A DNA stretch of 60,569 bases from Alphaproteobacteria bacterium (GCA_009926845.1 RFOF01000002.1:1-60569); one strand, 5' to 3'. Positions 998 to 57,229 are shown, counted from the first letter of the stretch. The notes: generated from the sequence alone by a model not told the origin. A program made the numbers and translations.

Positions 998-2854
998 ATG
1001 GCTGATGAACAAAAAAACACAGTGACACCCGCCACAAATACAGAGGCTACAGCCGCAATTACTGCGCTTGCCAAGAAGCGTGAGGCTGAAGAAAAAGAGC
1101 GCGCGAAGGCTACTCCAGCGCCCCTTGTCACTATTAATCCTATTGCCCAACAAACCATGAAAGCGCAAGGGCTGTATGAAGCTCACGTTCATGGTCGCTA
1201 TAAAGAGCAGGCAACAAAGATGGCTGAGACAGCAAGCAAGTGGACTTGGGGCAAAGGTGGGGAACAGATTATATCAGAAGATACTGCAAAATCCACCATT
1301 CCACTTGTCGCTGGTGCACTTGTCGCTGGCGCGGGTATGTTGCTTTTTGAACCCATCAACAAAGCAACCAAATTTGTTTTCAACCTGCCCAAAAAACTTA
1401 TCGAAGGCACGGGTCTAAACAAAATTCCACTTATAGGCGGCGCGTTACAGTGGATCGCTGATGGCATTTCCACTATTGGTGAATATGCGGCCTACGGCGT
1501 CGTCGCTCTCGCTGGCTTCATTGGCTATTCAATGTTTGATGCGAGCAAAGCTGCTCCACTGCCTGAAAGCGCCAAAACAGGTATGGGCGGCACAAGTGTA
1601 ACTCCTACCGCCGCACCCACCACAACAGTGACGGTCACCGACCCAAAAGGCAACGAATTAACAAGGGCTGAAAAAGTGCCAACGGGTGTTGCAGCAGTAA
1701 CTCCACTTGCACCAAACCAAGCAGAAATTGTTGCGGCTCTAGGCCTTACTGGCGCAAGTGTCAGCGCAGCTGCCGCCGCTCGCCAAGAAGCAATTAACAA
1801 AAAACTCTCTGATGTTGATGGTGCATTGAAGGAATATATAAAGAATCAGCAACAATCATACGCCAATGGTCGTGATTTTGCCGAAAAAGCCGAGGAATTC
1901 ACCAAAACAAATAGACAGCCTCTGGTAGATGCCCTTGTTAAATTGGGACTTTCGCCAACAACAGCTCAGGCTTTTGTCCCCGTCCCTCCCAAAGTGCGCC
2001 CAACAATCAATGAAGATGGGACAGACTTCCCACCAGAACTTGTGAATTTTGCCAAGAAATTTGAGGAAACATATTTAGAGGCGTATCCAAAAATTCTTCA
2101 TAAGGAAGGCAACTCAGAAGTCCCACTATTCAAAATGAAAAGATGGGATCAATTGAACTTCTCCGAGCGCGAGGAGTTTTTAGCAAAGGCTGTTTCATTC
2201 ACAGAAACACGTTTTGATGAATTAAAAAAACAAATCCCTGTTGAACACTCTGGTTATACCACTGGAGCTCATGGTGTGGCCGGTTATACGACTTCACAAA
2301 GTTATTATAATTACAAAATTCCACCCTCATCATGGTGGGATAGAACATTCTCTTCTGAAAAAAGCTGGGAAGACAGGAAAAGTCCTTACCTTGACGATTT
2401 GCGCAAGGAGCATCAATTTTATTTAAATACATATGACATGAACCCTCATAGCTCATCCGTTACTACGAATGGACAAACAATTGAAATCACTTCATTGCCA
2501 AAGGAAGGCAATATCAAAGCTCTCCTTACTCAATGGCAGCAAAACAAGAAAATGGCCGATGAGCATAGAAAAACTATGCAAGAGAGCGTGCCAATGATGG
2601 ATCAGTTTGGTGAGCAGGTGAAACAAATGCAACAGCAACTTGCCAAAATCAAAGATGGCTCGCTAGTTGTGCAAGAGGGAAAACTGGTAGAGCCACCTAA
2701 AAAGGAAGTTGAAGCCGCTCCTGTAAAGCCTGCTCCCACAAAACCCACTGCTGCGAACACGCTACTGCAAGAAACACAGACCAATGTTTTAGAGCCAGTT
2801 ATGCCGAGCACCCCCAAACAGCTTCCCAATGGGTTGGATCCGCGTTACGTCTAA
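998..2854 (+). CDS. Hypothetical 618-aa protein with clustered hydrophobic segments (about aa 100-180) and a Pro/Lys/Gln-rich tail; no family recognised
   Basis: Long uninterrupted ORF. Hydrophobic stretches IPLVAGALVAGAGMLLF and YAAYGVVALAGFIGYSMF are present. It is AT-richer than its neighbours and sits between ffh and rpsP. Confidence 0.6.
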   Translation: MADEQKNTVTPATNTEATAAITALAKKREAEEKERAKATPAPLVTINPIAQQTMKAQGLYEAHVHGRYKEQATKMAETASKWTWGKGGEQIISEDTAKSTIPLVAGALVAGAGMLLFEPINKATKFVFNLPKKLIEGTGLNKIPLIGGALQWIADGISTIGEYAAYGVVALAGFIGYSMFDASKAAPLPESAKTGMGGTSVTPTAAPTTTVTVTDPKGNELTRAEKVPTGVAAVTPLAPNQAEIVAALGLTGASVSAAAAARQEAINKKLSDVDGALKEYIKNQQQSYANGRDFAEKAEEFTKTNRQPLVDALVKLGLSPTTAQAFVPVPPKVRPTINEDGTDFPPELVNFAKKFEETYLEAYPKILHKEGNSEVPLFKMKRWDQLNFSEREEFLAKAVSFTETRFDELKKQIPVEHSGYTTGAHGVAGYTTSQSYYNYKIPPSSWWDRTFSSEKSWEDRKSPYLDDLRKEHQFYLNTYDMNPHSSSVTTNGQTIEITSLPKEGNIKALLTQWQQNKKMADEHRKTMQESVPMMDQFGEQVKQMQQQLAKIKDGSLVVQEGKLVEPPKKEVEAAPVKPAPTKPTAANTLLQETQTNVLEPVMPSTPKQLPNGLDPRYV

Positions 2855-3422: not shown

Positions 3423-3935
3423 ATGAAAAATGACCTTATCAAAATTGGAATTTTTGGCCCGGCGCATGGCGTCCGCGGCCAAATTTCTTTGCGCAGCTTT
3501 ACCGACAATCCAAAAGACATTCTCGCCTACACACTCACCGACGCCACCGGCGCGCGCCAATACACGCTTAAATGCGACGGCGTGAAGGGCAAGGATTTGA
3601 TCGTGAGCGTGGATGGCATCGCCGATCGCAATGCTGCTGAATCCCTCAAAAATACAGCGGTTTACGCGCCCGAGTCCGTCCTCCCCGAAGCATCTGACGA
3701 TGAATTCTACCACAGCCAACTCGTCGGCATGCGCGCACTCACAACGGATGGAAAAGCCTATGGAACCGTCCTTGCCGTGCACAACTATGGCGCGGGGGAT
3801 ATTCTGGAATTTGAGCTAGCCGGCGGCGGAAACGAAATGCTGCCCTTCAAAGATGCATTCATCGGCGAAATTGATAGAAAAAAACGAACTATCGTTGTGT
3901 TCCCACCGTATTATGTGGAGGCGAAGGAAGGCTAA
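3423..3935 (+). CDS. rimM: 16S rRNA processing protein RimM
   Basis: MKNDLIKIGIFGPAHGVRGQISLRSFTDNP... and the position directly after rpsP fit RimM. Start chosen at the Met matching the family N-terminus. Confidence 0.9.
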   Translation: MKNDLIKIGIFGPAHGVRGQISLRSFTDNPKDILAYTLTDATGARQYTLKCDGVKGKDLIVSVDGIADRNAAESLKNTAVYAPESVLPEASDDEFYHSQLVGMRALTTDGKAYGTVLAVHNYGAGDILEFELAGGGNEMLPFKDAFIGEIDRKKRTIVVFPPYYVEAKEG

Positions 3936-5248
3936 CGGGATTTAAGCCTTCCAACGCCATGCTGCTCGACAAGATGTTGTCGAATTCTGTGACAAAACCC
4001 CGGCCTTTGCTCGGATAATGGCACATCTTCTCTTTGTCGTTTTTCACCCTCAGGCAAAAGATTGATATGATCTTTAGAAAAATGCTCACCAGCAACAACC
4101 GCTCGGTTTGCCTCTTGAAATTCTCCTGGACTCACGCCTGATATCAATGCTTGTGGATAAAGCGCAGCAGATGAATTTCCTTGCTGTAAAGTACGCTCTG
4201 TTTCAAAATTGTCAAATGCATTTTCAAGCTGTTTATCGTCCAGCACGCCTTTTATTTTTCCTTTTTCAAGTCCCCGTGATGCTAGGTGTGCGTCTTGCGC
4301 GGCTTCATAATCAATTTTCTCAGCGGCCGGAATCTTCGGAAGCGAATTAAAATGGTCTATACAGAATTGTCCAACTCTACAAATCTCACTTTCAAACTCA
4401 GGGAGTACATATCCAGAATCATCAAAAGCATTACCAATCTCAGGAAATGATTTTTTTAAATTGGGTACACACTTTGTATTGTAACAACGCCGCCCAAATT
4501 CTAATTTCTGCGCATTTGTTGCCTTGTCCACATCGACCACGGCTCCCGGATCCAAAATAATAGGGACGTTCTTTTTATTTTTGTCTTTGATAATCGCAAT
4601 ATTACTAAAGGATGGATCAAAAAACAATTTTCCCCTCTGCAGATTGTCACGTACCAATTGGCTAATGAATGATCGAACTAATGACTCGGCATCCGCCACC
4701 TCCGATATCCCGTATTCTTTGGCAACATCAGAAAAATCAATCAGCTGTTTTAATGTATGTACCTTGGGCAAAATCTCTATCCAATAACCAGCCACAGTCG
4801 TGCTAACAATGGGTTGCAAAACATCTGGGCTATCAGGACGTGGGGGTTCTCTATATTGCTCTGGCAGACCAGAGGAATTCTTTGTAGCAATGCGAATCAT
4901 TAGATTGCTATTGGCCGCCGCTACAACAGCATACCCACCAGCCATTGTGTCCTTAGAAAGCCGCCTAAAACCAATGGACTCCAAGTGCTTAAGTAGCAAT
5001 TGAAACCCCTCTAAATCTATATACATCATTTGAGCAGCCAAAGAGCCGTGATGCCGCTGCGAAGCAGATGCCAAAACTTCACGCGGCGAACGAAATTTTG
5101 AATAATCGGGCTGATCCAAGGCTAATCCACTTTTACACTTTTCATTTACCCCCCCAGAGGGTATCTTCCATCTCCTATTGTAACCTACCCAATTCGTATG
5201 TTGAGCGAATTTTTGTGAAGTTTTTGTGAAGTTATTGTGACAAGCCAT
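3932..5248 (-). CDS. Hypothetical protein with atypical protein-kinase-like motifs, antisense insert between rimM and trmD
   Basis: The ORF is open 3932..5413. The Met at 5248 is the first start that does not run through trmD. Motifs [11 protein letters not shown] (D-x4-N, catalytic-loop-like) and [11 protein letters not shown] (DFG-like D-P-G) are visible. Counted lines are about 30-48% GC. Confidence 0.55.
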
Positions 5249-6056
5249 GCCAGACCCTAAAACCCCCCTCTTCTCCGCTATTTGCCTGACGCTGTTTCCG
5301 GAAATGTTTCCGGCGACGCTTGGGCATTCACTGGCGGGTAAGGCGTTGGAAAAAGGTATTTGGTCACTGCAAGCAATTGATATCCGTGAATTTTCAACCG
5401 ACAAGCACCGCACGGTGGATGCGTCCCCTTATGGCGGCGGCACGGGCATGGTTCTGCGCCCCGATGTGGTGGATGCGGCGGTGGAACATGCTTTGAGCAT
5501 CCTCTCCCCATGGGAGAGGAGCGGCGCAAGCCAAGGTGAGGGCTGCCCTCAGAGCCAAATTAGCCCTCACCCTAACCCTCTCCCAGAGGGAGAGGGAAAA
5601 AGGCCCATCATTTTCTACACTTCTCCGCGCGGTGAGCCCATCACCCAGAAACTCGCAGAAGAAATTAAAAATCAGCAGGTTATTATTGTCTGCGGGCGCT
5701 TTGAAGGGCTTGACCAGCGCGCCATCGACCACCACCAGATGCGCGAGATAAGTTTGGGTGATTTTGTGCTTTCGGGCGGAGAAATCGCCGCGCTCGCGCT
5801 GATAGACGCGGCGGTGCGCCTGCTGCCGGGGGTGATTTCCAAAGAATCGGCCACCGATGAAGAAAGTTTCGCGTGCCATACAGATTATGCTGGACTGCTG
5901 GAATATCCGCATTATACTCGTCCCCCTGTTTGGAAGGGAATGGAAGTGCCTGAAGTGCTTCTTTCCGGCAACCATGAACACATCAATAAGTGGCGGCTTG
6001 AGCAGGCTAAAATGATTACGAAGGCTCGCCGCCCCGACTTGGTAAAGAAGACATAA
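5247..6056 (+). CDS. trmD: tRNA (guanine37-N1)-methyltransferase TrmD carrying an in-frame repeat-derived insertion
   Basis: [22 protein letters not shown]...[22 protein letters not shown]...[16 protein letters not shown]...[22 protein letters not shown]...PHYTRP...[13 protein letters not shown] matches TrmD. An extra segment of about 34 aa ([34 protein letters not shown]) is present. Confidence 0.93.
5500..5597. repeat. Composite palindromic element of about 100 nt (three hairpins) inserted in frame in trmD
   Basis: The three hairpins are tcctctccccatgggagagga, ggtgagggct...agccctcacc and ccctctcccagagggagaggg. The 3' 35 nt (5563-5597) are identical to 11009-11043 in meaB. Confidence 0.8.
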
Positions 6057-10368: not shown

Positions 10369-11373
10369 ATGACAAACACACTCACCGACCGCGCAGGCCT
10401 CGCACGCGCCATCACGCTGATTGAATCCACGCGCGAAGACCACCAGCGCGAGGCGCAAGCGCTCATAACATCCCTGCTTCCCAAGACAGGAAACTCCATC
10501 CGCATCGGCATCACCGGTGTGCCGGGCGTCGGCAAATCGACTTTCATCGAAGCGCTCGGCATGCACGTCATCAACCAAGGCCACAAGGTGGCGGTGCTGG
10601 CCATCGACCCTTCGAGCAGCAAAACCGGCGGCTCAATTCTGGGTGACAAAACCCGCATGGGGGAGCTCGCGCAACACGAATCCGCCTATATACGCCCCTC
10701 ACCCACCAGCGGTTCGCTCGGCGGCGTTGCGCGGCGCACGCGCGAGGCGATGCTGCTGTGCGAAGCGGCGGGCTATGATGTCATCCTCGTGGAAACCGTC
10801 GGCGTTGGCCAATCCGAAATTGAAGTGGCCGACATGGTGGATATGTTCGTGCTCCTGCTGCTGCCGGGCAGTGGTGACGAGTTGCAGGGCATCAAAAAAG
10901 GCATTGTCGAGCTGGCCGACCTCATCGTCGTCAACAAGGCCGATGGTGATTTGGCGGCGCAGGCCAAACGCGTGCGCACGGATTATGCGGCCGCGCTGCG
11001 CATGCTCCGCCCTCACCCTAACCCTCTCCCAGAGGGAGAGGGAATAATGGGGCAGTGGCAGCCAACGGCGATTACCTGCTCGGCGCTGGAAAATCGCGGC
11101 GTGAATGAGGTCTGGACAAAGGTGGAAGAATTCCGCGCCGCCATGCAAAAAAGCGGGGAGTTAGATACAAACCGCAGCCACCAAGCCAAAGCGTGGATGT
11201 GGAAAGAAATCCGCGAAACGCTGCTGGCGCGGTTTTCGCAGCACCCCGAGGTTCAAAGCAGAATTGCAGAAAAAGAGCGCAAAGTGGAAGCTGGCGAGCA
11301 CTCCCCCACAGAGGCCGCTATGGGGTTGATTGAAGTGTTTTTCTCTCCTACGAAGGGTGATGAATCGGCTTGA
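10369..11373 (+). CDS. meaB: Methylmalonyl-CoA mutase-associated GTPase MeaB (ArgK/LAO-AO transport ATPase family), with a repeat-derived in-frame insertion and a remodelled 3' end
   Basis: GITGVPGVGKSTFIEALG (P-loop), AVLAIDPSSSKTGGSILGDKTRM, DVILVETVGVGQSE and VVNKADGD match MeaB. The last about 10 codons (SPTKGDESA) read into the inserted TA cassette. Confidence 0.9.
   Translation: MTNTLTDRAGLARAITLIESTREDHQREAQALITSLLPKTGNSIRIGITGVPGVGKSTFIEALGMHVINQGHKVAVLAIDPSSSKTGGSILGDKTRMGELAQHESAYIRPSPTSGSLGGVARRTREAMLLCEAAGYDVILVETVGVGQSEIEVADMVDMFVLLLLPGSGDELQGIKKGIVELADLIVVNKADGDLAAQAKRVRTDYAAALRMLRPHPNPLPEGEGIMGQWQPTAITCSALENRGVNEVWTKVEEFRAAMQKSGELDTNRSHQAKAWMWKEIRETLLARFSQHPEVQSRIAEKERKVEAGEHSPTEAAMGLIEVFFSPTKGDESA
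11009..11043. repeat. 35-nt palindromic element copy inserted in frame in meaB (encodes [11 protein letters not shown])
   Basis: gccctcaccctaaccctctcccagagggagaggga is identical to 5563-5597. Confidence 0.8.
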
Positions 11374-11677
11374 AACTCATGCGGATGCCAAGACCACCCA
11401 GAACGGTTTGAAACGTGCGCAGCCGCGGGTTGCCATCCGGTGAGAGTGCCTCGTGCAACGCCTGCCTGCTCACGGAAGTTTTGCGCGCCAAGCCCGCAAG
11501 ACCGCCTTGCGCCTTAGCGACCAGCCGCAAGGTATCGAGCAGCGCAGTCACATCATTGTCCTTTTCGAATTCCTGCAACGCCAGTTTTGTCGCATACTCA
11601 GCCTGCTTGGGATCTTTCAAATATTTCAATGCAATCTCATCGAATGGAATGCCGGTGCTTTTGCCGTTCTTTTTCAT
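11348..11677 (-). CDS. HigA-type addiction-module antidote protein (HTH)
   Basis: ...LLDTLRLVAKAQGGLAGLARKTSVSRQALHEALSPDGNPRLRTFQTVLGGLGIRMSF is typical of the antidote partner of RelE/HigB-like killer proteins. It overlaps the upstream toxin gene by 4 nt. Confidence 0.85.
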   Translation of the reverse strand: MKKNGKSTGIPFDEIALKYLKDPKQAEYATKLALQEFEKDNDVTALLDTLRLVAKAQGGLAGLARKTSVSRQALHEALSPDGNPRLRTFQTVLGGLGIRMSFKPIHHPS

Positions 11678-12051
11678 GCCTTGTCCTCCAAATAAATGTT
11701 CCAGTATTCTTTTGCTTTCGCGATGTCCTTACGCTGCGTGGATTTGTCCCCTCCGGTAAGAAGTAAAATCACCTGCCCTTTGTGCTCCCCAAAATAGATC
11801 CGGTAGCCAGGGCCAAAGAAGAGGCGCATTTCGTAAAGACCTGCATCCAGCGCTTTAAAGTCTCCGAACTGGCCTTGCTTCGCTCGCGCCACCCGACTAC
11901 GGATGCGCTCCCGAATCTTCCAGTCCAGTGAGTCCATCCATGCCTGAAACGGGCTTTTCCCAGACCGGTCAGAGAAAACAAGGACTTCATACTCTTGAGT
12001 CTTTAGCAAAGCACTTCCCCTTATTCTTGGAGTTAAGTGTAATGCATGCAT
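11674..12051 (-). CDS. RelE/HigB-like addiction-module killer protein (true start possibly TTG at 12009)
   Basis: ...GKSPFQAWMDSLDWKIRERIRSRVARAKQGQFGDFKALDAGLYEMRLFFGPGYRIYFGEHKGQVILLLTGGDKSTQRKDIAKAKEYW fits the family. AAGGGGA lies 6 nt upstream of the TTG at 12009. Confidence 0.8.
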   Translation of the reverse strand: MHALHLTPRIRGSALLKTQEYEVLVFSDRSGKSPFQAWMDSLDWKIRERIRSRVARAKQGQFGDFKALDAGLYEMRLFFGPGYRIYFGEHKGQVILLLTGGDKSTQRKDIAKAKEYWNIYLEDKA

Positions 12052-12095: not shown

Positions 12096-12170
12096 GAGCG
12101 CAAAGTGGAGCAAGGAAAACTATCCCCCACAGAGGCCGCTATGGGGTTGGTTGGGGTGTTTTTTGGGTAA
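12096..12170 (+). repeat. Displaced duplicate of the meaB 3' end (would encode ERKVEQGKLSPTEAAMGLVGVFFG-stop)
   Basis: gagcgcaaagtgga...tcccccacagaggccgctatggggttgGttgGGgtgtttttt aligns with 11275-11343 inside meaB. Confidence 0.75.
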
Positions 12171-12216: not shown

Positions 12217-14814
12217 TTAGTATTGGTATTTAACGCATTGATATTGGGGATCAGAATACGGATTACACCAGTGGCCAGCGGGACATCCCATGCGTAATTG
12301 GGTATTGTCGACGTAATGACACCATGTATTCACACAAGCGAAATCTTCAATATTGTTGTCGTAAACACATCGTTGTATTGCAGAACAAGTAGGGCTACAT
12401 CCCGCACAAGCCCAATTCTTGTTAGGTTCTTTCCCTATTTCCACGCAAGCCTGCCCATTAGGGCATATGCCACATTTATTAGTTGATCCTGGTGTTGGCG
12501 TAGAAGAGGGTGTTTCTTCAGGAATATCAACAACCACAGCATATTTTTTCAGTATCCTTTCCTTTTCCGACGAAGGGATGGGGAATTTAGCCACGTCTGT
12601 ATACCAGTCCATTAACAGGCTGACCGCTTCCTCTAAGCAAGCTTTGTCTGCCGCGCTCTCACCTAAACTACAGTTAGGCCTAAATTGGCATTGAGGGTTA
12701 CCAGGAAGGTCACTACTGGTTATATGACCATTATTGTCCATAAATAATTGTTCACTTGTTACGCATTCCTGGAATTTAATGTCACACGCAGGATAGCACG
12801 ATGTTTTCACACACCTAAATAAGGGGAAACCATCGCTGTCTTTTTGATTGTTATCTTTAAGGCATGTCTCACCTAAACCACAGGCAGGATCACATTGATT
12901 TGGTTTGCACAAATCATTTTTATTTTCATAGCAAGTTTCAGTGGTTTTACATGTTTTGGTGATTTCCTGTTTACCAGTTTTGCTATTATAATGCCAACAC
13001 TTGTTACCGCCACCATTCTCACGATACCAGCCACCATTGCTTGTAGTTATACATGTACCGAAGTTAAGATCTTTGCATTGAATTTGCCTACACTCATAAT
13101 ACTTACTGCCATCATCATCACCACTCTCTCTTTCTAGACAGACGTCGGTGGCTTGACCGCAAACCTTCCCACAGCCCACTTGTTTACACGAACTTGTAAT
13201 ACCATCTCCCATCTGCATATGAGTGTTTGGATCAATGACTACCCCAAAGTCTGAGTAGCACCCCTGAGTATCCAAATCACATACTGGGTCATCACACGCA
13301 GGCCTGTTGCACGTGTAGCCACCCTTTCCATTTGAAACGCATCCGCTATGCACGGCATCACAGATATCGGCGCCGCCACAGTAGGCAACATCGACAAACG
13401 TTCCCGCCGGAAGTGGGACAGGCGTAGGTCCTGTCGCCGTAGGAGTCGGGGTTGGCGTTGGCATAGATGTCGGAGTTGGCGTCGCTGTAGGAGTTGGCGT
13501 AGGCGTTGGTGTCGGCGTTGGTGTCGCGGTAGGGGTGGGCGTCGCTGTTGGCGTTGGTGTTGGTGTGCGCGACGGCGTTGGCGTCAACGAAGGCGTTGGC
13601 GTTGGTGTCCCAGGGCGTTGACACTTATTTGTATCTAAGTTGCACACACTGCTACCTGGGCATCTGTCGTCAGAATCGCAGCCCGGAACACACTCCACAC
13701 CGCTGCAATAATTCTCCATCGGGCAGTCGGTGCTATCAGCACACTCGGGCGTCACACAATGGTCGCGGATGCATACTTCTCCGTCACCACAAGTTGGATC
13801 ACCTGCGGGATTCGTACATGATGCAAAACAGCGACCATTGGGGTGATTAGGGAACCTATCGCAGATCTGACCTTCATCACATTGGCTGGCATCATGGCAA
13901 CCTGCCACACATGAATTTGACTCACAAATGGCGCCTCTACCGCATTGCCCATCGTCAGCGCACTGAACACACTGCCCAATGCCCGTTATTGGATTGAGCG
14001 GGCCGCAAGCAGGCATTGAGTCTCCGCATTGGCCGGAATCATGGCAACCCGCCACACATATATTGCTAGAACACACCTTGCCTATCCCACAATCGCTGTC
14101 TTGGCCACACTCGGCGCAGGTGTTTGTGTTAGTATAGCAAAGGCGGGAGGCGCAATCGGCATTGCCCAGACACTGAACGCACTTAGGCGGCTCGCTATTA
14201 TCGCAGACAGCGCCTTCGCCACAATCCACTGAACTTCTGCACCCTGCGATACAGGCATTCAAATGGCAGATGTTGCCCAGACCACATTGCAAGTCGTCCA
14301 AGCACTGCACGCATTTAGGCGGTGTGCCGTTATCACAATATTTTCCACTGGTTTCGCAGGCCAGCAACTCGCATGTGGTGGCGGGGGCGATGCAGGTGTA
14401 GGCAGCACCAACACCCGCAGGATGGGAACAAATCTCGCCTGTTTTACACCCTTTTTTATTAATGCCACTAGCGTTCGTATGATGGCAATTATTTTCCTCA
14501 CAACCGACCGTTCCATCACCATAGGCTTTGCATATCTCATAAGACTCGCAGACGGGGCATGTTTTCCAGCTATAGCCACCCCCGGGCTGCGCAACGCACA
14601 CGCTCGGCGATGCAGGGGTTGCGCCACACGGCGAAACGGTCGGCGTTGGCGTATTATTACCGCCACCCGGATTCCCACCACCCGGATTGCCGCCACCCGG
14701 ATTGCCACCATTACCACAGGTGGCATCCGCCGCAAAAACGTCAGACGCCGCCACCGCCAGCAAGGGAACCAGCAGAAAAAGAATAGTCCGAATTGTGGCG
14801 ACGTATTTTCTCAC
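12217..14814 (-). CDS. Secreted cysteine-rich repeat protein, 865 aa, with Sec-type signal peptide, GNPGG x3 tract and a central Pro/Thr linker
   Basis: [31 protein letters not shown] is a signal peptide with an AxA-type site. Units such as [37 protein letters not shown] recur. A linker of about 60 aa ([58 protein letters not shown]) is present. Confidence 0.85.
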
Positions 14815-14883
14815 ACTATCTTCTTTGTCAAAATGTTCATATCTCGTTTCATTTTAAGCATTCGCCCTTTAGGGACAAGTTAA

Positions 14884-17800
14884 TTAGGGGCCGGATTTGC
14901 AAGTGCCGCTATTGATGCCCGTGCAACCCCATTGGCAATTCGTGCTTAAACATGGATAGCACTGGCCTGCAACACAATCGCCAGGAAGCGGGCAAGTGCT
15001 TCTATTGCATACAACCGGCGTAGGCGTTGGTGTCGCATTATTACAGTTATTAGAATCTGTACCCGCACATGTTCGGCAACCGCTATTATCGGATTTACAG
15101 CCATAAACACCGCAATTAATGTTGCTGCATTTCCGACATTCACCTCCAATACACTCGCCCGGGAAAGGACAATTATTCGTATTCGTCGTCCCATCATCAC
15201 AAGCCGCCGGCGTAGGGGTTGCAGTAGCGTTGCGAGAAACACAGGAATCATTCTGATCGCAATACCAATTCAGGGAAGATTGACCTGAAGGTGGGCAGTT
15301 GCCCGGGCCACAATCTGCGCAGCGCTCTCCACCGTTGCCAGCTGAGGTACATTTCTTTGAAGCACATTGAGAAGCCATACAACCTGGTACACATAGACCC
15401 GTGCTAGTATTGCAATACTCATCAGCATCACACAAACCACCTGCCGTACAACTATCCTTACATGCACCCAATGCAGTAGACGATCCACCATCGCAAACCT
15501 GACCCGATGGGCAGTTAGCATTAGAATGACAGCCCTCTACGCATATTTTGCAACCATAACCATAACTGTGGCAGGTCTTACCCACCCCACAATTATCGGT
15601 TGTGCAAATATTGTCCATACATTGCTTGGTAGCCATACAACATTTTTGGCCGCCAGTGCAGCTACTATCAGTCATACATGTCGAAGGCGAAGGCGAAGGC
15701 GAAGGCGTTGGGGTTGGGGTGTTTTCACACTGACCAATATCCCCAGAATTCCCAGAACCTTTGCACACCTGCCCAGTAGGGCATACATATGATGTGACCA
15801 GACCTCCCAGACGGCAACCCTTAATGCACTGTTTATCATTGTTGGGGCCTTGTGGTTCGCAGATATGTCCTGGCCCAATAGCAGAATTCGACTGACACCA
15901 ATAATCAGTTGCACATGTGCTATCTTGACACGTGCCATGATCTGCACCGGATGGAATAACACATATCTGATGTATACTTGATGCCATGCCTGATGTGTTT
16001 TGACAGTCGTCTTTAGTGCGGCATCCAACGACACATTCCGGCCATGTATTGGAAACGTAGGCGCATATTTCCTTAGGATCACTTGAACATACGGTAGTTT
16101 CTTTTTCTACACGGCAACCACGCACACATGTTTGATAGGTTTTATCACTGTTGGTATCATATTCACATATGTAATCATTCCCATAATTTGTTGTGTCTCT
16201 CGTGCAGACATCATCGCTCGTGCAACCGACACATTCGTTATTCACACAAACCTTATTCCCAGCACCCGCACCCGAGGCATCTTTACAGTCAGTATCTTTT
16301 TTACAAGCCACGCATTCTGGCGGCGGTCCTGCCAAACATATAGGCTTATCGGCTTGGCTTGGGCAGTCCAGAATCGCGCAGGTAGTGGCTTTACATTTAA
16401 ACGTGCTGCCATACCGCTGATCATCACAATAATTAGGCCATGGCGGATTGATGCCCATATTGCATTCGCCATCACTCGTACACTCAGGCGTGTTACCTGG
16501 CGTGCCGGTTGGTGTATCGGTGGGAACATCGGTCGCGGTGGGTGTATCCGTCGCTGTTTCCGTGGCCGTCGGCGTTTCGGTGGGCGTTGGCGTAGCTTCA
16601 GTACACGACCCATTCGGGTTACAACTATCTATACACTCATCGTCACAAGAACAGGTGTTCGTGTCAATACATACAGAACTTCCTACGCACTCGGGATCAC
16701 ATACACAGGTGCCCGTTACATAACATGGAGGATTCAAGCAATTCCCCATGCCGTCACATCCATAAGGGCATTGGCACTCACCGCCACCACCGCCACCGGT
16801 CGTTGCGGTTGGCGTTGTGGTCGGCGTGGATGATGCTCCTTTACAAATGTTCCCTTCACAAATAGGCTTGTCAGATGGACAACCTCTTGGAGCACCGCTC
16901 GGCAGGGTAACACATTCCACGCAAACTTTATTTTCGCAGATTTTCTTAGGATCTGTTGTGCACTGAGCATCCCTTGTACATTCAGGCGTAGCAGTTGGCG
17001 TTTTGGTTGGCATCGTGCCGCCGCCGCCAGAGCCACCGCCGCTATCTGTTGGGGTATCTGTTGGTGTCTCTGTTGGGGTCTGAGATTCCGCCACACAGCT
17101 CCACGTTTCAGTGTCGCAATGCCGCTTCGGGTCAACGGTGCAATCACCGTCCACAGTGCACTCAACGCAGGCGTGAGGAGATATCGTCATATTACATACG
17201 AAGTGTTTCTCGCTCGTGCCATTATTGCAATCGGCAGAGTCGTTATCGTCGGTACACTCCGTGCAAGTATGGCTGCTTGTATCGCAGTGCGGCCCAGCGA
17301 GGCTGCAAGCACATTGAGTATTATCCAAGCACTCAACGCAGGTTTTTGAGTTCACATCACATGTCAACCCAGCACCACAATTGTCAGGATATTCGCTACT
17401 ACATGCCCCACATTCGTTGTTTGCAGCGTCTAAACATATCTCAGGCTCTACACAATTTGTATTACCACAGCTGTTGTCCGGCGTGCTGGTGGGTGTCTCA
17501 ACTGGTGTTCCGGTCGCCGTTGGCGTCCCAGCTGGTGTTCCGGTTGCCGTTGGCGTTGATGATTCCACGCAAACTCTATTTTCGGTATCACAGGTTGTTT
17601 TATTATTAATCACATTATCTTTGCAGTCGCCGTTAACCTTACATTCATAACAGGTAAACGACTTTACCGTACCCTCCACGAGATCACATTTCTTTGGACT
17701 TTCGCAGTTTCCATCGTTCTCACACTCAACACAGCGCGTTTGATCCTTGCATATTCTTCGTGTCGAGTCTTGGCTTGCTCGCGGACAGCTGTAGTTATCT

Positions 17801-18426
17801 TTACATTCAACGCAGGTATTGGGGAAAGCATCGCTGCAGACGCCATTACCCGTCGAACCATCCCAGAAAAGCATGTCTCGGCAATAACGATCTGCTTGAT
17901 CTCCGCCACATTCTTTACATTCATTTGTGGATGTATCACACCAAGGGTGTTCAGGATCCACACAATCACTTTGAACTCTACAGTCAACGCATCTTGGATA
18001 GCCAAGTGAAGTATCACAAACTTGCGGCGCATCGCAAACCGCAAGCCCACAATTTGGAGTGCCGCTCGGCGTGCTGGTGGGTGTGCTGACTGGTGTTCCG
18101 GTCGCGGTGGGGGTTGGGGGTGACACAGGGCACGACCCATCATTATTACAAGCATCAATACAGTCAGCAAGGCAAGTGCAATCATCGTAGAGATACCCTT
18201 TGACGCATTCAGAGCCCGCTACGCACTCAGGGGAGCAACTATCCGTCGCAGTAGCGGTTGGGGTGCTGACCGGTGTTTCGTTCGCAGTGGCGGTGGGTGT
18301 TCCGGCTGGGGTGGTGGTTGGGGTGGGGTCGCAGATAGCCTTACAAGGAGCAATTGTACACTTGTTCACCCCACAAGGACACACCGGCGGTGGTTTTGCC
18401 ACAGCCTCAAACGCCACGCCCATCAT
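14884..18426 (-). CDS. Cysteine-rich mosaic protein, 1180 aa, with multiple Pro/Thr linkers and no obvious signal peptide
   Basis: The ORF is uninterrupted for 3.5 kb. I counted about 13-14% Cys in two stretches. C-x-[EDQ]-C motifs recur (CVDC, CKEC, CVEC, CYEC). Modules C.PECV.GS.C...C.C.D.CID.CN..GSC + PT linker and C..C P.PG.C..G.C..C...NC..GC..NSG.C each occur twice. Confidence 0.8.
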   Translation of the reverse strand: MMGVAFEAVAKPPPVCPCGVNKCTIAPCKAICDPTPTTTPAGTPTATANETPVSTPTATATDSCSPECVAGSECVKGYLYDDCTCLADCIDACNNDGSCPVSPPTPTATGTPVSTPTSTPSGTPNCGLAVCDAPQVCDTSLGYPRCVDCRVQSDCVDPEHPWCDTSTNECKECGGDQADRYCRDMLFWDGSTGNGVCSDAFPNTCVECKDNYSCPRASQDSTRRICKDQTRCVECENDGNCESPKKCDLVEGTVKSFTCYECKVNGDCKDNVINNKTTCDTENRVCVESSTPTATGTPAGTPTATGTPVETPTSTPDNSCGNTNCVEPEICLDAANNECGACSSEYPDNCGAGLTCDVNSKTCVECLDNTQCACSLAGPHCDTSSHTCTECTDDNDSADCNNGTSEKHFVCNMTISPHACVECTVDGDCTVDPKRHCDTETWSCVAESQTPTETPTDTPTDSGGGSGGGGTMPTKTPTATPECTRDAQCTTDPKKICENKVCVECVTLPSGAPRGCPSDKPICEGNICKGASSTPTTTPTATTGGGGGGECQCPYGCDGMGNCLNPPCYVTGTCVCDPECVGSSVCIDTNTCSCDDECIDSCNPNGSCTEATPTPTETPTATETATDTPTATDVPTDTPTGTPGNTPECTSDGECNMGINPPWPNYCDDQRYGSTFKCKATTCAILDCPSQADKPICLAGPPPECVACKKDTDCKDASGAGAGNKVCVNNECVGCTSDDVCTRDTTNYGNDYICEYDTNSDKTYQTCVRGCRVEKETTVCSSDPKEICAYVSNTWPECVVGCRTKDDCQNTSGMASSIHQICVIPSGADHGTCQDSTCATDYWCQSNSAIGPGHICEPQGPNNDKQCIKGCRLGGLVTSYVCPTGQVCKGSGNSGDIGQCENTPTPTPSPSPSPSTCMTDSSCTGGQKCCMATKQCMDNICTTDNCGVGKTCHSYGYGCKICVEGCHSNANCPSGQVCDGGSSTALGACKDSCTAGGLCDADEYCNTSTGLCVPGCMASQCASKKCTSAGNGGERCADCGPGNCPPSGQSSLNWYCDQNDSCVSRNATATPTPAACDDGTTNTNNCPFPGECIGGECRKCSNINCGVYGCKSDNSGCRTCAGTDSNNCNNATPTPTPVVCNRSTCPLPGDCVAGQCYPCLSTNCQWGCTGINSGTCKSGP

Positions 18427-19829
18427 GTGTTCGGACCATCGCCGAGCGACTCCAGCCGCTCCTCATAATGGCTTTTGATGCGCATCAGCGCGGGGGCGTG
18501 CGCCTTGCCAGTCGCCTGCAAATCCTCGATTTTTTCAAGCGCCATGCGAGCCGCCGATACACGCGCGAACCAGTCCTCATAGAGAATTTTTCCCTCATAG
18601 GTCAGTGTCAAGCGCCGCAGCAGCCACGGCAGCGAAAGCCCCTGCACCACCAGCGTGAACACAATCACCGACAGCGCGAGGAACAAAATCAAATCGCGGT
18701 GCGGAAAGGGCGTGCCATCCCACATGGCAACAGGAAGCGCGAGCGCAGTGGCCAAGGAAACCACCCCGCGCATCCCCACATAGCCAATGAGAAATGTATT
18801 CTGCCAGGGCGGATAGGGATCGTTTTTGCGGATGGCGGGGAACAAAAAGCGGGTGCCATAGCCAACGGCAAACACATAGACAAAGCGCACCAGCACCACC
18901 GCGCCGCAAATAATCGCCGCATCTTCTGCCAGCGCGCTTGGTGAATAGATGGATACACGCTCGAGCAGCGAGGGGATCTGCATACCAATCAAGATAAATA
19001 CAAACGCGCTGAGCACGAACGAAAGCATATGCCACACGGCCTCGGCAGGAATACGGAATTTGGCGGTAAAGGTCGTCGGCGAATGCCAGCTGACATAGAG
19101 CCCCGTTGCCACCACAGCGAGCACACCCGAACCATGCACATGCTCGGCCAGAAAATACGACAAATACGGAATCATGATCGAGCTTAAAATCTCAATCGGG
19201 ATTTCTTTGATGTGGCGGAAAAAACGAATAAATAAATAGCCAACGGCAAGGCCAACGCCAACGCCAATCACCGCCATCATGACAAATTGAGTGCTGGCTT
19301 GCGGAAATGAAAAATAGCCCGTGAGCACTGCGGCCACTGCGAATTTATACATCACAAGCCCCATCGCATCATTGACCAAACTCTCACCTTCTAAAATGGT
19401 GGTGATACGTTTGGGGATGCGCATTTTTTTGATAACCGAAGTTGCCGCCACCACATCTGGCGGAGAAATAATCGCGCCGAGCACAAAGCCCATCGCCCAT
19501 GTGGCTTCAGGAACGATATGCACAAAAACAGCGGCGATAATAACTGCCGTGATAAACACAAGACCAATAGCAAGCTTCAAAATGGGGCGCAGATTATCGC
19601 GGAAGTCACGCAGCGAGGTGAAATAGGCGGCTTCCATCAGCAGTGGTGGCAAAAATATCATCAGCATGGATTCTGGCGCTAATTCCAGATCGCGAACGCT
19701 GGGCACAAAACCAAGCGCCACGCCGCCGAGCAAAAACGCACTCGAATACGGAATATTGCCGCGCTGCGCAAGTAGCGCCAGCAAGCAGGTCATCAACAAT
19801 AAGAATATGATAATTTCAGCAGTTCCCAT
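18423..19829 (-). CDS. Na+/H+ antiporter (CPA1/NhaP-type)
   Basis: It is polytopic. ...GAIISPPDVVAATSVIKKMRIPKRITTILEGESLVNDAMGLV... is typical of CPA1 exchangers. Confidence 0.85.
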   Translation of the reverse strand: MGTAEIIIFLLLMTCLLALLAQRGNIPYSSAFLLGGVALGFVPSVRDLELAPESMLMIFLPPLLMEAAYFTSLRDFRDNLRPILKLAIGLVFITAVIIAAVFVHIVPEATWAMGFVLGAIISPPDVVAATSVIKKMRIPKRITTILEGESLVNDAMGLVMYKFAVAAVLTGYFSFPQASTQFVMMAVIGVGVGLAVGYLFIRFFRHIKEIPIEILSSIMIPYLSYFLAEHVHGSGVLAVVATGLYVSWHSPTTFTAKFRIPAEAVWHMLSFVLSAFVFILIGMQIPSLLERVSIYSPSALAEDAAIICGAVVLVRFVYVFAVGYGTRFLFPAIRKNDPYPPWQNTFLIGYVGMRGVVSLATALALPVAMWDGTPFPHRDLILFLALSVIVFTLVVQGLSLPWLLRRLTLTYEGKILYEDWFARVSAARMALEKIEDLQATGKAHAPALMRIKSHYEERLESLGDGPNT

Positions 19830-19956: not shown

Positions 19957-20568
19957 ATGACCGAAGCACCTCGAGACCTCATAGAAGAATATAAAGCACT
20001 GCTTGAACAACTTTCAGCATTAAGAGAGCAGGCACAACTTACAGGAGTCGCTCTTCCCCGTGAGCAACCTCCAGAATCGTTCGAGAAATTTCTCGAAACC
20101 TATACCATTGCAGTACAAACAAAGGGCAAGCCCATACGAGTTGCTTTCCCTCAATATAAGGAAGCGATGGACAGTGCCCTCAAAACAATCGAAGAGAGAT
20201 TTAAACTGACATATACACCAGAGATACAATCTCATGCTCAAGGAACCAATACAAATCCCATAGTATATAAAGATCAATATAGCATCACTGAACATAAGGA
20301 TGATGGCTCTAAAAGGCGAATCCCTGTCAGAGAGCGTTCAAATACGGTAGATTTAGAGTTTTATAATGACAAAGCAAAAGTAGAAGAGGTTCTAAAGCGC
20401 GAAGTGGCGGAAGCAACAAAACCTCTGAGAGAGGCCATGGAAAACCATCGCAAGGCCGCACAAAGAATCTACGATTATATGGTTGAAAATAGCACGCCTG
20501 CAACACTGATAACTGACCCAAGAAGTATCACGTTAGCAGGCCACACTGTCGTCGCCGCCGCTAAATAG
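19957..20568 (+). CDS. Hypothetical 203-aa protein
   Basis: Clean ORF, AT-richer, no recognised motif. It converges on the pirin gene with an 8-nt overlap. Confidence 0.5.
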   Translation: MTEAPRDLIEEYKALLEQLSALREQAQLTGVALPREQPPESFEKFLETYTIAVQTKGKPIRVAFPQYKEAMDSALKTIEERFKLTYTPEIQSHAQGTNTNPIVYKDQYSITEHKDDGSKRRIPVRERSNTVDLEFYNDKAKVEEVLKREVAEATKPLREAMENHRKAAQRIYDYMVENSTPATLITDPRSITLAGHTVVAAAK

Positions 20569-28529: not shown

Positions 28530-29405
28530 TTATTTTTTCATCGGTGCGTCCTGCGCGGTCATTTCGCAGGCTTTATAATACTCTTTAATGCTGTCGAAAA
28601 ACTCTTCAACAATCCCAACCATATTATCTGTTGATGCAGTAATCAGTTGTCCTGCCAGATTATTGACCATTTCTTTAAAATGAATGTCGTTTTTCAAGCG
28701 CATATGATGACGCGAAAATGGAACAGAATACGAAGTGTGGCCATAAAGTGAATGCAGAGCTTCACTTTCAAGCGCAATAGAGTCTGGCGCCACCGTAATA
28801 GTTGCCACAGGATAAGAGGTGGAGTCCCCATCCGCTGTCTCTTTTTTGCATATTTCGAGAGTGCCATAAAAATTTCCGGTTCGGCTGATATTTTTCATAT
28901 CTTCCGCGCTGCGTGAAACGTCAACAAAGCCGATTTCTCCCTGCTTGCTATCAAGCGGACCCACTGGGATTTTTACATGCACTGGATAATCGCGAGGAGA
29001 TAGATGGCGATGCGGCGGGGCATTAGCAGGAATAATAAGACTAGGCGGCATATGAAGTGTAGCGATCAAATCCTCAATGCCGGCATGCAACGCATCCACA
29101 TCAACAGACAAGCCTTTACGCTGCAAGAATTCAAAAAAACGGGTTTTAAATGGACCTATATTTTCTGAAGTGAGTATGAATGGCTCGCCATCTGAAAGAA
29201 CAGCTATTTCCGGCGAATCTCCCTTTTTGACCGTCATCCCAACGTCAGTGGCAGTAATCGTTGCTAAAATCCGTCCGCCTGCATCACGGAGAAAAATATA
29301 TCCATCTAGAAATTCTTTTTCTTCTACTTCTTTCGCAAGCAATGAATAATCTATCGCCCCTAATTCATGACCATATTCGTCACTCAAATTTTGAAATTCA
29401 GGCAT
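28530..29405 (-). CDS. Hypothetical 291-aa protein
   Basis: Clean ORF, AT-richer than its neighbours, no recognised motif. Confidence 0.5.
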   Translation of the reverse strand: MPEFQNLSDEYGHELGAIDYSLLAKEVEEKEFLDGYIFLRDAGGRILATITATDVGMTVKKGDSPEIAVLSDGEPFILTSENIGPFKTRFFEFLQRKGLSVDVDALHAGIEDLIATLHMPPSLIIPANAPPHRHLSPRDYPVHVKIPVGPLDSKQGEIGFVDVSRSAEDMKNISRTGNFYGTLEICKKETADGDSTSYPVATITVAPDSIALESEALHSLYGHTSYSVPFSRHHMRLKNDIHFKEMVNNLAGQLITASTDNMVGIVEEFFDSIKEYYKACEMTAQDAPMKK

Positions 29406-34119: not shown

Positions 34120-35830
34120 ATGCTCGATAACAACCAACATCTCGCTTCATTAAAAATTGCGCTGGTTTCGGCCACGCGCGCACTTGCGCATGACGCAAAA
34201 CTCAACGTGCAATTTAACGCGGCGAGCAACGCGGAGGGTGCAGTTTTGCTGCCGCAAATGTTGGAGCCCCCCGCTGCGCACGAGCTGGCCACCATTCGCG
34301 GTGAGGCCGACCACGCTGCGCTGACCCACCACCTGCACAACCCCGTTTTGCACCGCGACCTTCGCCCGCTGACACCTGCGAATGCGCAGCTGTTCGACGT
34401 GCTGGAAAATATCCGCGTCGAAAGCCTCGGCAGTCAGCATATGCAGGGTGTGAAGCTCAACCTCTATCGCCGCTATGAGCAGCGCGCGATGCAACAAGGT
34501 TTGCCGCGCGAGCGCCCGCTGCCGCTGCTGCTAGAGCTCAATGCGCGCCGCTATGTGCAGGAAATGCCCATCCCTGCTTTTCTTGCAAATGCGCTCGAAG
34601 AATCACACGCGCAGATGCTTGATATCATTCCGTACCTGGAACAACTCCGCGAAAAAATCACCGACCAATACCAGTTTGGCAAAGCAGCACTAGAGGTGAT
34701 CGAAGCCCTCGCTCACATCAAACATTCCAGCAAACCCGGCGATGACAATGGCGAGCAAAGCGGCAGCCAGTCAAAGACTGCCGAAAAGCCCCGCGAGGAT
34801 TCGGCTGAAGATGCCCTGCCCTCGCAAGGCGGCGACACAGAGAGCACCGAGCAAGAGCTTTCGCAAATGATGCTAAAGCCCGCAGGCCCGGGCGCAGAGG
34901 CCCCAGAAGGCGGGCAGGAGATAAAACTAAGCGGCGCGCCGCAACACACGCCCACGACCGGCCACAACGAGCTTACTGCCGCCCCCTATCACGCCTACAC
35001 CACGAGTTATGACGAGGTGGTGGCCGCCCACCTGCTGGCTGCGCCCGCCGAGCTAGAGCAGCTCTCGCGCCAACTTGACCAGAAGCTCACGCAATTTCAA
35101 AGCATCACCAGCAAACTCGCCGCACGATTACAACGCCTGCTGCTGGCGCGCCAAGCCCGCCACTGGGCGTTCGACCAAGAAGACGGCATGCTCGATAACC
35201 GCAAGCTCGCGCGGCTCATCATCCACCCTGAAGAACAACTCATCTATAAACACGAAAAAGACAGCGAATTCCGCGACACCATCGTCACCCTGCTCATCGA
35301 CAATTCTGGCTCGATGCGTGGCCGCCCCATCACCATCGCCGCGCTGTCCGCCGACATCATCAGCAGAACGCTGGAGCGATGCGGTGTGAAGGTGGAAGTG
35401 CTCGGCTTTACCACGCGCGAATGGAAAGGCGGCAACTCCTACAAACAATGGATGAGAGAGGGCCGCCCGCCACACCCAGGGCGCCTCAACGACCTGCGCC
35501 ACATCATCTATAAATCCGCCGACATGAGCTGGCGCAAGGCGCGCGGAAAGCCGCCTGCTCGCCCGCCCCGAGCAACGCCGCATCCTCATGGTGATTTCCG
35601 ATGGCGCGCCGGTGGACGACAGCACGCTTTCGACCAACCACAGCCGCTATCTCGATGCGCATTTGCGCGAGACCATCGCCCGCATCGAAACCGCAGGCGT
35701 CATCGAACTCCTCGCCATTGGCATCGGCCATGACGTCACCCGCTACTACAAACGCGCCGTGACCATCTCCGAAATTGAAAAACTCGGCGAGACGATGACC
35801 GATCAGCTGGTGAAACTGTTTGAGAAATGA
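34120..35830 (+). pseudogene. cobT: CobT-type vWA protein with a short internal deletion and frameshift near 35545
   Basis: Frame 1 reads ...[20 protein letters not shown] and then turns to Arg/Pro-rich nonsense. Frame 2 resumes with ([14 protein letters not shown])[15 protein letters not shown]...[17 protein letters not shown]... About 20-25 conserved residues between the two parts appear to be missing. Confidence 0.8.
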
Positions 35831-41655: not shown

Positions 41656-42513
41656 ATGAGCCAAGCGTATCAAGGTGCATGCATCATCATCCCCACCAAG
41701 CACGCTAAATCCATAGCGATTGCACCGCCATTTTGGAATCATCTGGGTGCAAGCGTGCTGGAATACTATGTCGATACCGATACGCTTGGCACATTTTCCG
41801 GCGAGGTGGAACGCAAAGGAAATGCACTCGAATGTGCGCGGTGCAAATGTGAGTGGGCACTGGATCTGCTTGGCGACAAGGTGGAGTATTGCATTGCCAG
41901 CGAGGGCAGCTTTGGGCCACATCCGCATTTTCCGTTTCTACCCTGCGATCAGGAAATTTTATATTTCATTGACCGTAAGCGTGGCTTTCATCTGCACGTG
42001 GCGCATGTGACGGAAAAAACAAACTATCAAATGAGTGGGTTGGAATCATGGGAGCAACTACAGCAATTTGCTGAATCGGCACAGTTTCCCTCCCATGCCC
42101 TCATCGTTCGTCCAAACAGCCGGGAAGATAGCGGCGTTTTATTCAAAGGGATTAATACGACCACTGCACTTGAAGAAGCGTTTAAAGAATCACGCAAAGT
42201 CTCCACCGATGGCAAGGTGTGGGTAGAAACCGACATGCGGGCACAATTCAACCCATCGCGCATGGCAGTAATAGGCGAACTTGCCAATAAGTTGGCACAG
42301 CGCCTTGCCGCACCATGCCCTAAATGCATCGCTCCCGGTTGGGGGTGTATGAAAGTTGAGAAGGGTTTACACTGCGAATATTGCGACCAAGCTACCGAAA
42401 TGATCGCCCATGAGATCTATGGCTGTGTGTCGTGCGATCATACTGAAACCACACCACGAGCCGATGGACTGAAAGCGGCACCGCAAATGCATTGCGGTTG
42501 CTGTAATCCTTAG
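41656..42513 (+). CDS. Hypothetical 285-aa protein with four C-terminal CxxC pairs (zinc-ribbon-like)
   Basis: CPKC...CEYC...CVSC...CGCC in the last about 70 residues. It starts 8 nt after the preceding gene. Confidence 0.6.
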   Translation: MSQAYQGACIIIPTKHAKSIAIAPPFWNHLGASVLEYYVDTDTLGTFSGEVERKGNALECARCKCEWALDLLGDKVEYCIASEGSFGPHPHFPFLPCDQEILYFIDRKRGFHLHVAHVTEKTNYQMSGLESWEQLQQFAESAQFPSHALIVRPNSREDSGVLFKGINTTTALEEAFKESRKVSTDGKVWVETDMRAQFNPSRMAVIGELANKLAQRLAAPCPKCIAPGWGCMKVEKGLHCEYCDQATEMIAHEIYGCVSCDHTETTPRADGLKAAPQMHCGCCNP

Positions 42514-51328: not shown

Positions 51329-51334
51329 CACCCC

Positions 51335-57226: not shown

Positions 57227-57229
57227 TAT

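Follow-up and report, generated by a model that had tools for sequence, protein, structure and literature searches.

Two adjacent genes of an uncultured alphaproteobacterium encode exported, extremely cysteine-rich repeat proteins with a predicted hairpin-rod fold

A 60,569-nucleotide stretch of DNA from an Alphaproteobacteria bacterium (GCA_009926845.1, RFOF01000002.1:1-60569; hereafter the window, with positions counted from its first letter) carries on its minus strand two adjacent genes for very large, cysteine-rich proteins, which we call A and B. What might such proteins do? We incline, with slightly better than even confidence, to the view that both are Sec-exported structural proteins in which disulfide-stiffened hairpin rods are carried on flexible linkers, and that they would serve as a scaffold at the cell surface or in an extracellular matrix. 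The evidence that carries this view consists of export signals in both proteins, ordered cysteine repeats of a class first described in myxobacteria, and a confidently predicted fold for the repeat region of B.

Open reading frames, repeats and export signals

The two open reading frames (ORFs) and the spacer between them are as follows.

14884..18426, minus strand: gene A, an ORF of 1180 amino acids with 156 cysteines and 11 cysteine-rich modules, the 5′ end of which is cut in the window
12217..14814, minus strand: gene B, an ORF of 865 amino acids with a GTG start and 95 cysteines
14815..14883, minus strand: spacer of 69 bp between A and B, both genes having the same orientation

The initial annotation, made by eye from this DNA, had reported two uninterrupted minus-strand frames of these lengths, and its coordinates are exact. 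Both frames are far beyond chance expectation, with p ~2e-25 for the length of A and ~9e-19 for that of B. The locus is also present on an ENA scaffold (ERZ28577356 DAMP20-1_SAMN10254649_METAG-scaffold_81; 75 kb, here L001) and on the Logan contig L002, which was assembled independently from SRR8075950. Because the coding sequence of A and B in the window is 100% identical to that of L001 and L002 over all 6.2 kb, the ORFs are not an artefact of one assembler. Two segments of L001 and L002 are missing from the window, one directly upstream of A and the other inside leuB.

18426..18427, no strand: gap junction 1, at which 348 bp of the ENA and Logan assemblies are absent (L001 9656-10003)
10003-10006: gap junction 2, at which ~240 bp are absent (L001 18428-18669)

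The 348-bp piece comprises the first codons of A, the C-terminus of a Na+/H+ exchanger and, between the two genes, an intergenic stretch that includes a promoter-like site. In the window, gap 1 truncates the exchanger and gap 2 splits leuB into two frames. The protein collection holds the exact A sequence only from the ENA and Logan assemblies and the neighbours of A from NCBI as well, and B is absent from it. This pattern suggests that the window stems from a third assembly; the gaps are either misassembly in that assembly or real deletion variants.

Cysteine makes up 13.2% of A (156 residues) and 11.0% of B (95 residues) over the whole proteins, which bears out the extreme content originally counted in parts of them; both are also high in Thr, Pro, Gly, Asp and Asn. 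The remaining genes of the window contain 0-2% cysteine, with a single exception of 5.6%, and we found no real cysteine-rich ORF within the window besides A and B. The cysteines of the two proteins are ordered in a shared unit of ~22 residues, C-[VA]-[EQ]-(G)-C-x2-[DN]-x-[DQ]-C-x2-G-x2-C. Recurrent CxxC cores followed by a spaced Asp or Asn and a further Cys had been described by eye, and counting supports this description: 14 of the 24 CxxC motifs have a cysteine at +9, and 13 have Asp or Asn at +6. A hidden Markov model of the unit detected 23 units in A and 15 in B, versus 0.06 and 0.02, respectively, per composition-matched shuffle.

When A is split at its cysteine-free stretches, 11 cysteine-rich modules are obtained, lying between TPTPT-, TPTATGTP- or Gly-type linkers. 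The main features of A, from the N- to the C-terminus, are listed here.

18130..18237, minus strand: first copy of a duplicated module, residues 64-99, C.PECV.GS.C...C.C.D.CID.CN..GSC followed by a linker
17095..18051, minus strand: CVEC/CVDC-type units, residues 126-444, of the form C-V-E-C-x2-[DN]-x-[DN]-C, with a single Pro/Thr linker among them
16603..16710, minus strand: second copy of the duplicated module, residues 573-608, with 47% identity to the first
15241..16482, minus strand: C-x-x-G-C units and irregular cysteine-rich modules, residues 649-1062, related to the repeat region of B
14899..15201, minus strand: two copies of C..CP.PG.C..G.C..C...NC..GC..NSG.C, residues 1076-1176

Both module duplications that had been picked out in A are real, with z = 12.4 over shuffles for residues 64-99 against 573-608 and z = 9.5 for the pair in residues 1076-1176. 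Protein B has a simpler layout.

14731..14814, minus strand: signal peptide, residues 1-28, with cleavage before AD and without a lipobox; an N-terminal helix in the AlphaFold2 model
14663..14710, minus strand: tract of three GNPGG repeats, residues 34-53, a 15-nt tandem repeat in 3.2 copies
13621..14628, minus strand: repeat region, residues 63-398 (336 residues), with 54 cysteines and ~11 TIGR04201-like units in residues 150-398
13381..13620, minus strand: low-complexity Pro/Thr linker of 80 residues, residues 399-478
12220..13380, minus strand: C-terminal half, residues 479-865, with irregular C-x4-C-x3-C-x6-C...[YF]-x-C modules and two predicted helices

The TPTPT/TPTATGTP linkers, the GNPGG tract and the signal peptide of B named in the initial annotation were thus all found. 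The signal peptide of A is hidden in the window because of the missing 348 bp. In L001 and L002, the frame of A runs on upstream, and its true start lies ~18 codons earlier, at GTG. The corrected N-terminus, MQRILKRIRSSLLLLIPLMMMGVAFEAVA followed by KPPPVCPCG (read from the sequence of both public assemblies), combines a positively charged n-region with a hydrophobic core of 16 residues and an AxA site. Because these are the features of a signal peptide, we consider that A is also exported. The public gene call for A (MMMGVAF...) likewise conceals this signal.

Cysteine counts are even in nine of the 11 modules of A, in the repeat region of B (54) and in the two C-terminal segments of B (28 and 12), a parity that weakly supports intramodule pairing in both proteins. 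An odd number is found in the first cysteine segment that follows each signal peptide, namely five cysteines in A (residues 16-32) and the lone Cys33 in B; one further module of A is also odd, with 21 cysteines. That the odd segment after each signal peptide is a site of intermolecular disulfides is speculation.

Repeat class and predicted fold

To which family do these proteins belong? In Pfam, A and B match no family at E<=10, a null result that includes EGF, furin-like, Giardia VSP, Paramecium surface antigen and Dicty_CTDC (PF00526). In NCBIfam, both proteins match TIGR04201 (Myxo_Cys_RPT, 22 residues), the curated cut-off of which is 25 bits: the scores are 23.0 bits (E 5.9e-5) for B and 19.1 bits (E 1.1e-3) for A, each over five stretches. 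Residues 97-270 of B also match the cysteine-repeat part of the TraA model NF033759 (model positions 236-404) with 41.3 bits (E 7.6e-11), the full-length cut-off of this model being 750 bits.

Homology searches with the whole proteins were uninformative. Full-length B gave 707 matches, which we rejected as homologues because they have only the TPTPT linker in common with it and are not cysteine-rich, and full-length A found only itself. Given these linker-driven false matches, linker-free pieces were used as queries thereafter. With residues 63-398 of B, five proteins (P0122-P0126) were found at E<=1e-3 among 5.8 billion clusters, with scores of 39-49 bits and 32-35% identity over 42-82% of the repeat region. 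A signal-peptide or lipobox N-terminus is present in four of the five, the exception being P0122, and very regular units of 21-23 residues, C-x-x-G-C-x2-D-x2-C-x2-G-x2-C, likewise in four. P0125 (26.6 bits) and P0126 (35.9 bits) pass the TIGR04201 cut-off. In an alignment of B with the five relatives, 30 cysteine columns are invariant; composition-adjusted BLASTP of B63-398 against P0126 gave E 2e-16; and hhalign matched the unit profile of the window to the independent unit profile of the relatives over all 21 columns (probability 95.9%, E 6e-9). Because these four results agree, we assign the repeat unit of A and B, by sequence, to the TIGR04201 class. The earlier statement that the pair shows no recognisable family therefore stands for the whole proteins and for the C-terminal half of B, and it falls for the repeat unit; the myxococcal cysteine-rich repeats, which had been listed among the families to check, proved to be the match.

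The TIGR04201 unit has been described as a tandem repeat of ~20-22 residues with three invariant and two semi-conserved cysteines (PMC3325183). A and B likewise carry tandem units of ~20-22 residues and are signal-peptide-bearing proteins, as read from their sequence. The restriction to Myxococcales under which the class was first described does not hold here, and the unit is not confined to that order, because it also occurs on an archaeal contig, L085, on which Nre_N and Nre_C domains are encoded next door. The L085 protein (269 amino acids, lipoprotein-like) matches A in BLASTP at E 7e-7, with ~30% identity to the CVEC units. We noted that the C-terminal half of this protein, encoded at L085 9551-10360 on the plus strand, is made up of CVEC-x2-D-x-DC units and that the string CVECKDNY within them is identical in A. 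Scans of JGI metagenomes found nothing for B and, for A, only this distant archaeal protein.

P0122-P0126 and the L085 protein are the only sequence-level relatives, with invariant cysteine columns, and all are prokaryotic; the taxonomic survey that had been proposed with protists in mind as best matches thus pointed elsewhere. The relatives differ from A and B in that they are 269-578 amino acids long, are without Pro/Thr linkers, the A-specific modules and the C-terminal half of B, and lie on high-GC bacterial or low-GC archaeal contigs in unrelated gene neighbourhoods. The C-terminal half of B was compared as a profile, its short linker being masked, with a set of 1.84 billion representative proteins; no match reached E<=1e-3, in a search without a positive control because B is absent from that collection. 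Sequence and profile searches of the PDB gave nothing meaningful, the profile search being empty, and tblastn of A and B against plasmids found none. Whole A, whole B and the C-terminal half of B are, in the sequence collections searched, orphans.

Two other sets of candidates were discarded. The single PHROGs match to B is spurious and lies wholly inside the linker (residues 396-472). Three IMG/VR contigs labelled 'viral' by that resource (L086, L087 and L090) carry other large cysteine-rich ORFs with the CVECxxDxDC motif, but once composition is corrected for, these resemble neither A nor B and are not relatives. These ORFs comprise at least 1999 amino acids at L090 3-5999 (plus strand), at least 1064 amino acids at L086 1-3192 (plus strand), with a segment that looks dockerin-like by eye, and 382 lipoprotein-like amino acids at L087 12769-13914 (plus strand).

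AlphaFold2 was run on B63-398 with a 10-row alignment composed of the five relatives and the modules of A itself. The resulting model has a predicted local distance difference test (pLDDT) score of 85-93 over the repeats, and each unit consists of a short helical turn followed by a beta-hairpin. The model of full-length B contains the same hairpin rod, together with an N-terminal signal helix and a disordered linker; its C-terminal half has a pLDDT of <50, and for this reason no fold is assigned to that half. The original idea of exported, modular proteins of the disulfide type gains support from these results, in that both proteins have Sec-type signal peptides and a chain of beta-hairpins is confidently predicted, with the disulfides themselves presumed.

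The closest known system is TraA of Myxococcus xanthus (MXAN_6895), the TIGR04201 repeat of which also occurs in further secreted proteins of myxobacteria. Published AlphaFold analysis describes the cysteine-rich region of TraA as an extended beta-hairpin shaft, presumed to be stiffened by dozens of disulfides and to act as a presentation stalk, and in deletion tests its cysteine repeats were singly dispensable. The predicted rod of B matches this description. The likeness extends to the unit length of ~20-22 amino acids, the cysteine pattern C-x2/3-C-x5-C-x5/6-C, the Asp or Asn before the third cysteine, the Gly before the fourth, and the occurrence of tandem units in Sec-exported proteins. 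The differences are equally clear. First, A and B belong to an alphaproteobacterium. Second, they are without the PA14 or variable domain (Pfam), the MYXO-CTERM tag (NCBIfam) and the TraB partner of TraA, and no OmpA or beta-barrel gene lies nearby in the window. Third, Pro/Thr linkers divide their repeat arrays into 'beads', among which other mini-modules are interspersed. Finally, they are 1.3-1.8 times longer, and B has an orphan C-terminal half of 387 residues.

A structural scaffold and its alternatives

In the reading that we favour, each protein would consist of short, stiff rods with flexible Pro/Thr (and Gly) linkers between them. Every rod would be built from tandem units of ~20-27 residues, in which four cysteines hold together a short turn and a beta-hairpin. 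Intramodule disulfides would form in the oxidising environment of the cell envelope and yield protease-resistant, extended fibres. The likeliest role would be that of a cell-surface or extracellular-matrix scaffold, whether a spacer, a coat or an adhesive fibre, and the orphan C-terminal half of B would be the best candidate for specific binding or anchoring.

Several points weigh against this reading. Both A and B fall, narrowly, under the curated TIGR04201 cut-off. Pfam and NCBIfam reveal no function-bearing domain in either protein (PA14, lectin, enzyme or anchor), and neither protein showed a C-terminal sorting signal, a lipobox or a beta-barrel. Disulfide bonding is an assumption, and no orthologue of either protein was found. 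Moreover, the similarity between A and B is weak after composition correction (E 0.002); judged by sequence, they have a repeat type in common and are not recent duplicates.

Where did the pair come from? The LeuB protein of this genome is 92% identical to that of "Alphaproteobacteria bacterium SW_2" and 83-88% identical to those of many metagenome-assembled genomes labelled "Rickettsiales bacterium"; the window also codes for flagellin and leucine biosynthesis. The GC content at third codon positions (GC3) is 0.43-0.45 in A and B versus 0.55-0.70 in nearby core genes, and TGT accounts for 53-57% of their cysteine codons, versus 71% TGC in the rest of the window. Immediately downstream of B, at 11348-12051 on the minus strand, is a toxin-antitoxin pair consisting of a Gp49/HigB-like toxin (PF05973) and an HI1420-type antidote (PF21716), and no cysteine-rich ORF is present at 80 leuB loci of related genomes. 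Because of the atypical GC3 and cysteine codons, the toxin-antitoxin neighbour and the absence from the 80 loci, we consider the A-B pair accessory and probably horizontally acquired. One further point counts on the opposing side: the related loci are not syntenic beyond leuCDB, so that absence there says little about the remainder of those genomes, and the comparison of leuB loci gives no insertion site.

A more far-reaching proposal joins these elements. A and B together would form a lineage-specific, horizontally acquired, two-protein system of extracellular fibres without a database orthologue; the C-terminal half of B would represent a domain not seen before; and the hairpin repeat would belong to a much wider, hitherto unrecognised 'stalk' superfamily found in Myxococcota, Alphaproteobacteria, Archaea, Pithoviridae and possibly Dictyostelium. 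Taken as a whole, this proposal seems to us rather unlikely.

Four other explanations were considered, and all are weaker than the scaffold reading. The pair might contribute to an envelope lattice of the kind formed by chlamydial OmcA and OmcB, in which intermolecular disulfides of A, B and other proteins would produce a rigid, osmotically stable coat of an extracellular or resting stage. In favour of this, the two exported proteins have an extremely high cysteine content and adjacent genes; their odd-cysteine segments (Cys33 of B, the five cysteines of A and the 21-cysteine module of A) leave candidates for intermolecular bonds; and the relatives of the genome are annotated as Rickettsiales-like. 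However, A and B show no similarity to OmcA, OmcB or any envelope family in Pfam or NCBIfam. The mostly even cysteine counts and the self-contained hairpins of the model favour intramodule bonds, the long Pro/Thr linkers are better suited to extended fibres, and no outer-membrane anchor was found. We regard such a lattice as improbable.

The initial annotation had placed the repeats closer to eukaryotic furin-like, EGF-like or protist surface-antigen repeats than to bacterial ones and had raised the possibility of host mimicry or inter-domain transfer. In that case, A and B would be mimics of eukaryotic cysteine-rich repeats used in interaction with a host or prey and acquired by inter-domain or viral transfer within a protist-associated gene pool. 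Some support comes from structural comparison. A Foldseek search of predicted viral structures (BFVD) with the hairpin rod of B gave nine matches at E<=1e-3, the best at 8.5e-13, and six of the nine are cysteine-rich membrane or 'EGF-like' proteins of the amoeba giant viruses Pithovirus and Cedratvirus (W5S4M2, A0A481Z3F8, W5S5X2 and A0A6G8MYI5 among them). These six have E values of 8.5e-13 to 1e-6, with ~24% identity over 250-290 columns, and TM-scores of only 0.12-0.23. Against the PDB, no match fell below E 0.18, although the weak tail of that search consists entirely of eukaryotic disulfide-rich proteins (Dkk, follistatin, the Entamoeba Gal/GalNAc lectin and HER/EGFR). The Rickettsiales label of the relatives and the atypical codon usage of A and B would also fit.

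The repeats of Dictyostelium proteins (Dicty_CTDC, PF00526) have a unit of ~24 residues, and EcmA and EcmB are extracellular-matrix proteins. Like A and B, the PF00526 proteins EcmA, EcmB and PsiA are secreted and carry cysteine-rich repeats; the Pfam model, however, is silent on A and B, and kinship is unproven. The likeness of TIGR04201 to the PF00526 repeats of secreted signal proteins was remarked upon by the authors of the TraA work, which may be counted in favour of mimicry. EGF, furin-like, Dkk, follistatin, Giardia VSP and Entamoeba lectin heavy-chain modules similarly form disulfide-pinned hairpins in extracellular rods, but none of these eukaryotic modules matches A or B in Pfam or at the level of PDB sequences. 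The only family-level signal is that of bacterial TIGR04201 and the TraA cysteine repeats, and the sequence relatives are prokaryotic, with lipoprotein-type N-termini and bacterial contexts apart from the one archaeal contig. As for the viruses, the local match to the rod of B sets predictions against predictions, and the viral proteins are membrane proteins of amoeba viruses. Because repetitive cysteine-rich rods inflate 3Di+AA scores and sequence-level confirmation failed (the scan of viral contigs with A was empty, and the IMG/VR motif ORFs showed no composition-corrected similarity), we treat the structural likeness to giant viruses as a lead. Literature searches on Pithovirus cysteine-rich proteins, on Rickettsiales cysteine-rich repeat proteins and on the sample from which the DNA came (SAMN10254649, SRR8075950, DAMP20) yielded nothing usable. 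Neither the proposed eukaryotic affinity nor mimicry was upheld, and we hold mimicry to be quite unlikely.

A third possibility is that the proteins are exported thiolate metal-binders, similar to metallothioneins or zinc ribbons, that sequester or detoxify Zn, Cu or Cd. A cysteine content of 11-13%, the many CxxC motifs, the four cysteines per unit and the conserved acidic residues beside them could be read in this way. Nevertheless, the signal peptides route A and B to the oxidising envelope, the TIGR04201 region of TraA is located at the cell surface and has been interpreted as disulfide-bonded, and Pro/Thr linkers are a common trait of extracellular proteins. Pfam and NCBIfam give no match to a metallothionein or zinc-finger family, His is scarce in both proteins, and no metal-resistance genes lie near A and B in the window. 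Metal binding as their function is thus very doubtful. Finally, that A and B are an assembly artefact or a decaying remnant with fortuitous open frames, as the lack of orthologues anywhere searched, the atypical codons, the two small deletions that set the window apart from the other assemblies and the absence of B from the protein collection might suggest, is scarcely credible in view of two independent assemblies identical over 6.2 kb, a chance of 1e-18 to 1e-25 for such frames, correctly placed signal peptides in both, ordered repeats far above shuffled controls and a confident predicted fold.

Genomic setting and significance

The same orientation of A and B fits co-transcription, and a terminator-like site follows B.

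12125..12146, minus strand: terminator-like hairpin, a consensus match ~70 nt after the stop codon of B (L001 16284-16305)

Together with the promoter-like site upstream of A in the 348-bp piece, this hairpin would fit one transcription unit; such matches are no commoner than chance would provide. As for Dsb genes, a thioredoxin-like motif of the CPHC type was found in no real ORF of the window.

Elsewhere in the window, four ORFs of 203-618 amino acids have no significant Pfam match.

998-2854, plus strand
3932-5413, minus strand
19957-20568, plus strand
28530-29405, minus strand

In 998-2854, 19957-20568 and 28530-29405, GC3 is 0.36-0.40, and all four appear to be further orphan accessory genes amid core genes. 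A low-GC block (0.38-0.48) of eight co-directional genes occupies 48258-58066 on the plus strand and includes, by eye, one amidotransferase of the asparagine-synthase type; a role in surface polysaccharide synthesis or in glycosylation of the Pro/Thr linkers would be pure speculation. The DUF6671 protein encoded at 41656-42513 on the plus strand (E 1e-58) has 5.6% cysteine and several CxxC motifs towards its C-terminal end; it resembles a cytoplasmic zinc-ribbon protein and is unrelated to A and B. Lastly, the 537-residue ORF at 34120-35733 on the plus strand ends in ~70 residues of Arg/Pro/His-rich nonsense, which may be another frameshift or indel in the assembly of the window.

Previous work has described TIGR04201 as the myxobacteria-specific stalk of one kin-recognition receptor. 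In this study, a unit of this class has been identified in two settings outside Myxococcales, namely an archaeal contig and the genome of an uncultured alphaproteobacterium, and predicted proteins of amoeba giant viruses echo its structure. The architecture of A and B is also different, that of bead-on-a-string giants without a recognisable head domain. Two orphan proteins and one orphan domain are thereby made available as concrete objects of study. Two practical lessons also emerge, namely that Pro/Thr linkers yield hundreds of false homologues and that a truncated start call, as in the case of A, conceals a signal peptide. The distribution of the module suggests that TIGR04201-type repeats offer prokaryotes in general a way of building rigid extracellular spacers that resist proteases. 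If the wider 'stalk' superfamily considered above is real, its distribution would point to an exchange of such scaffold modules among soil and water microbes and their protist-associated viruses.

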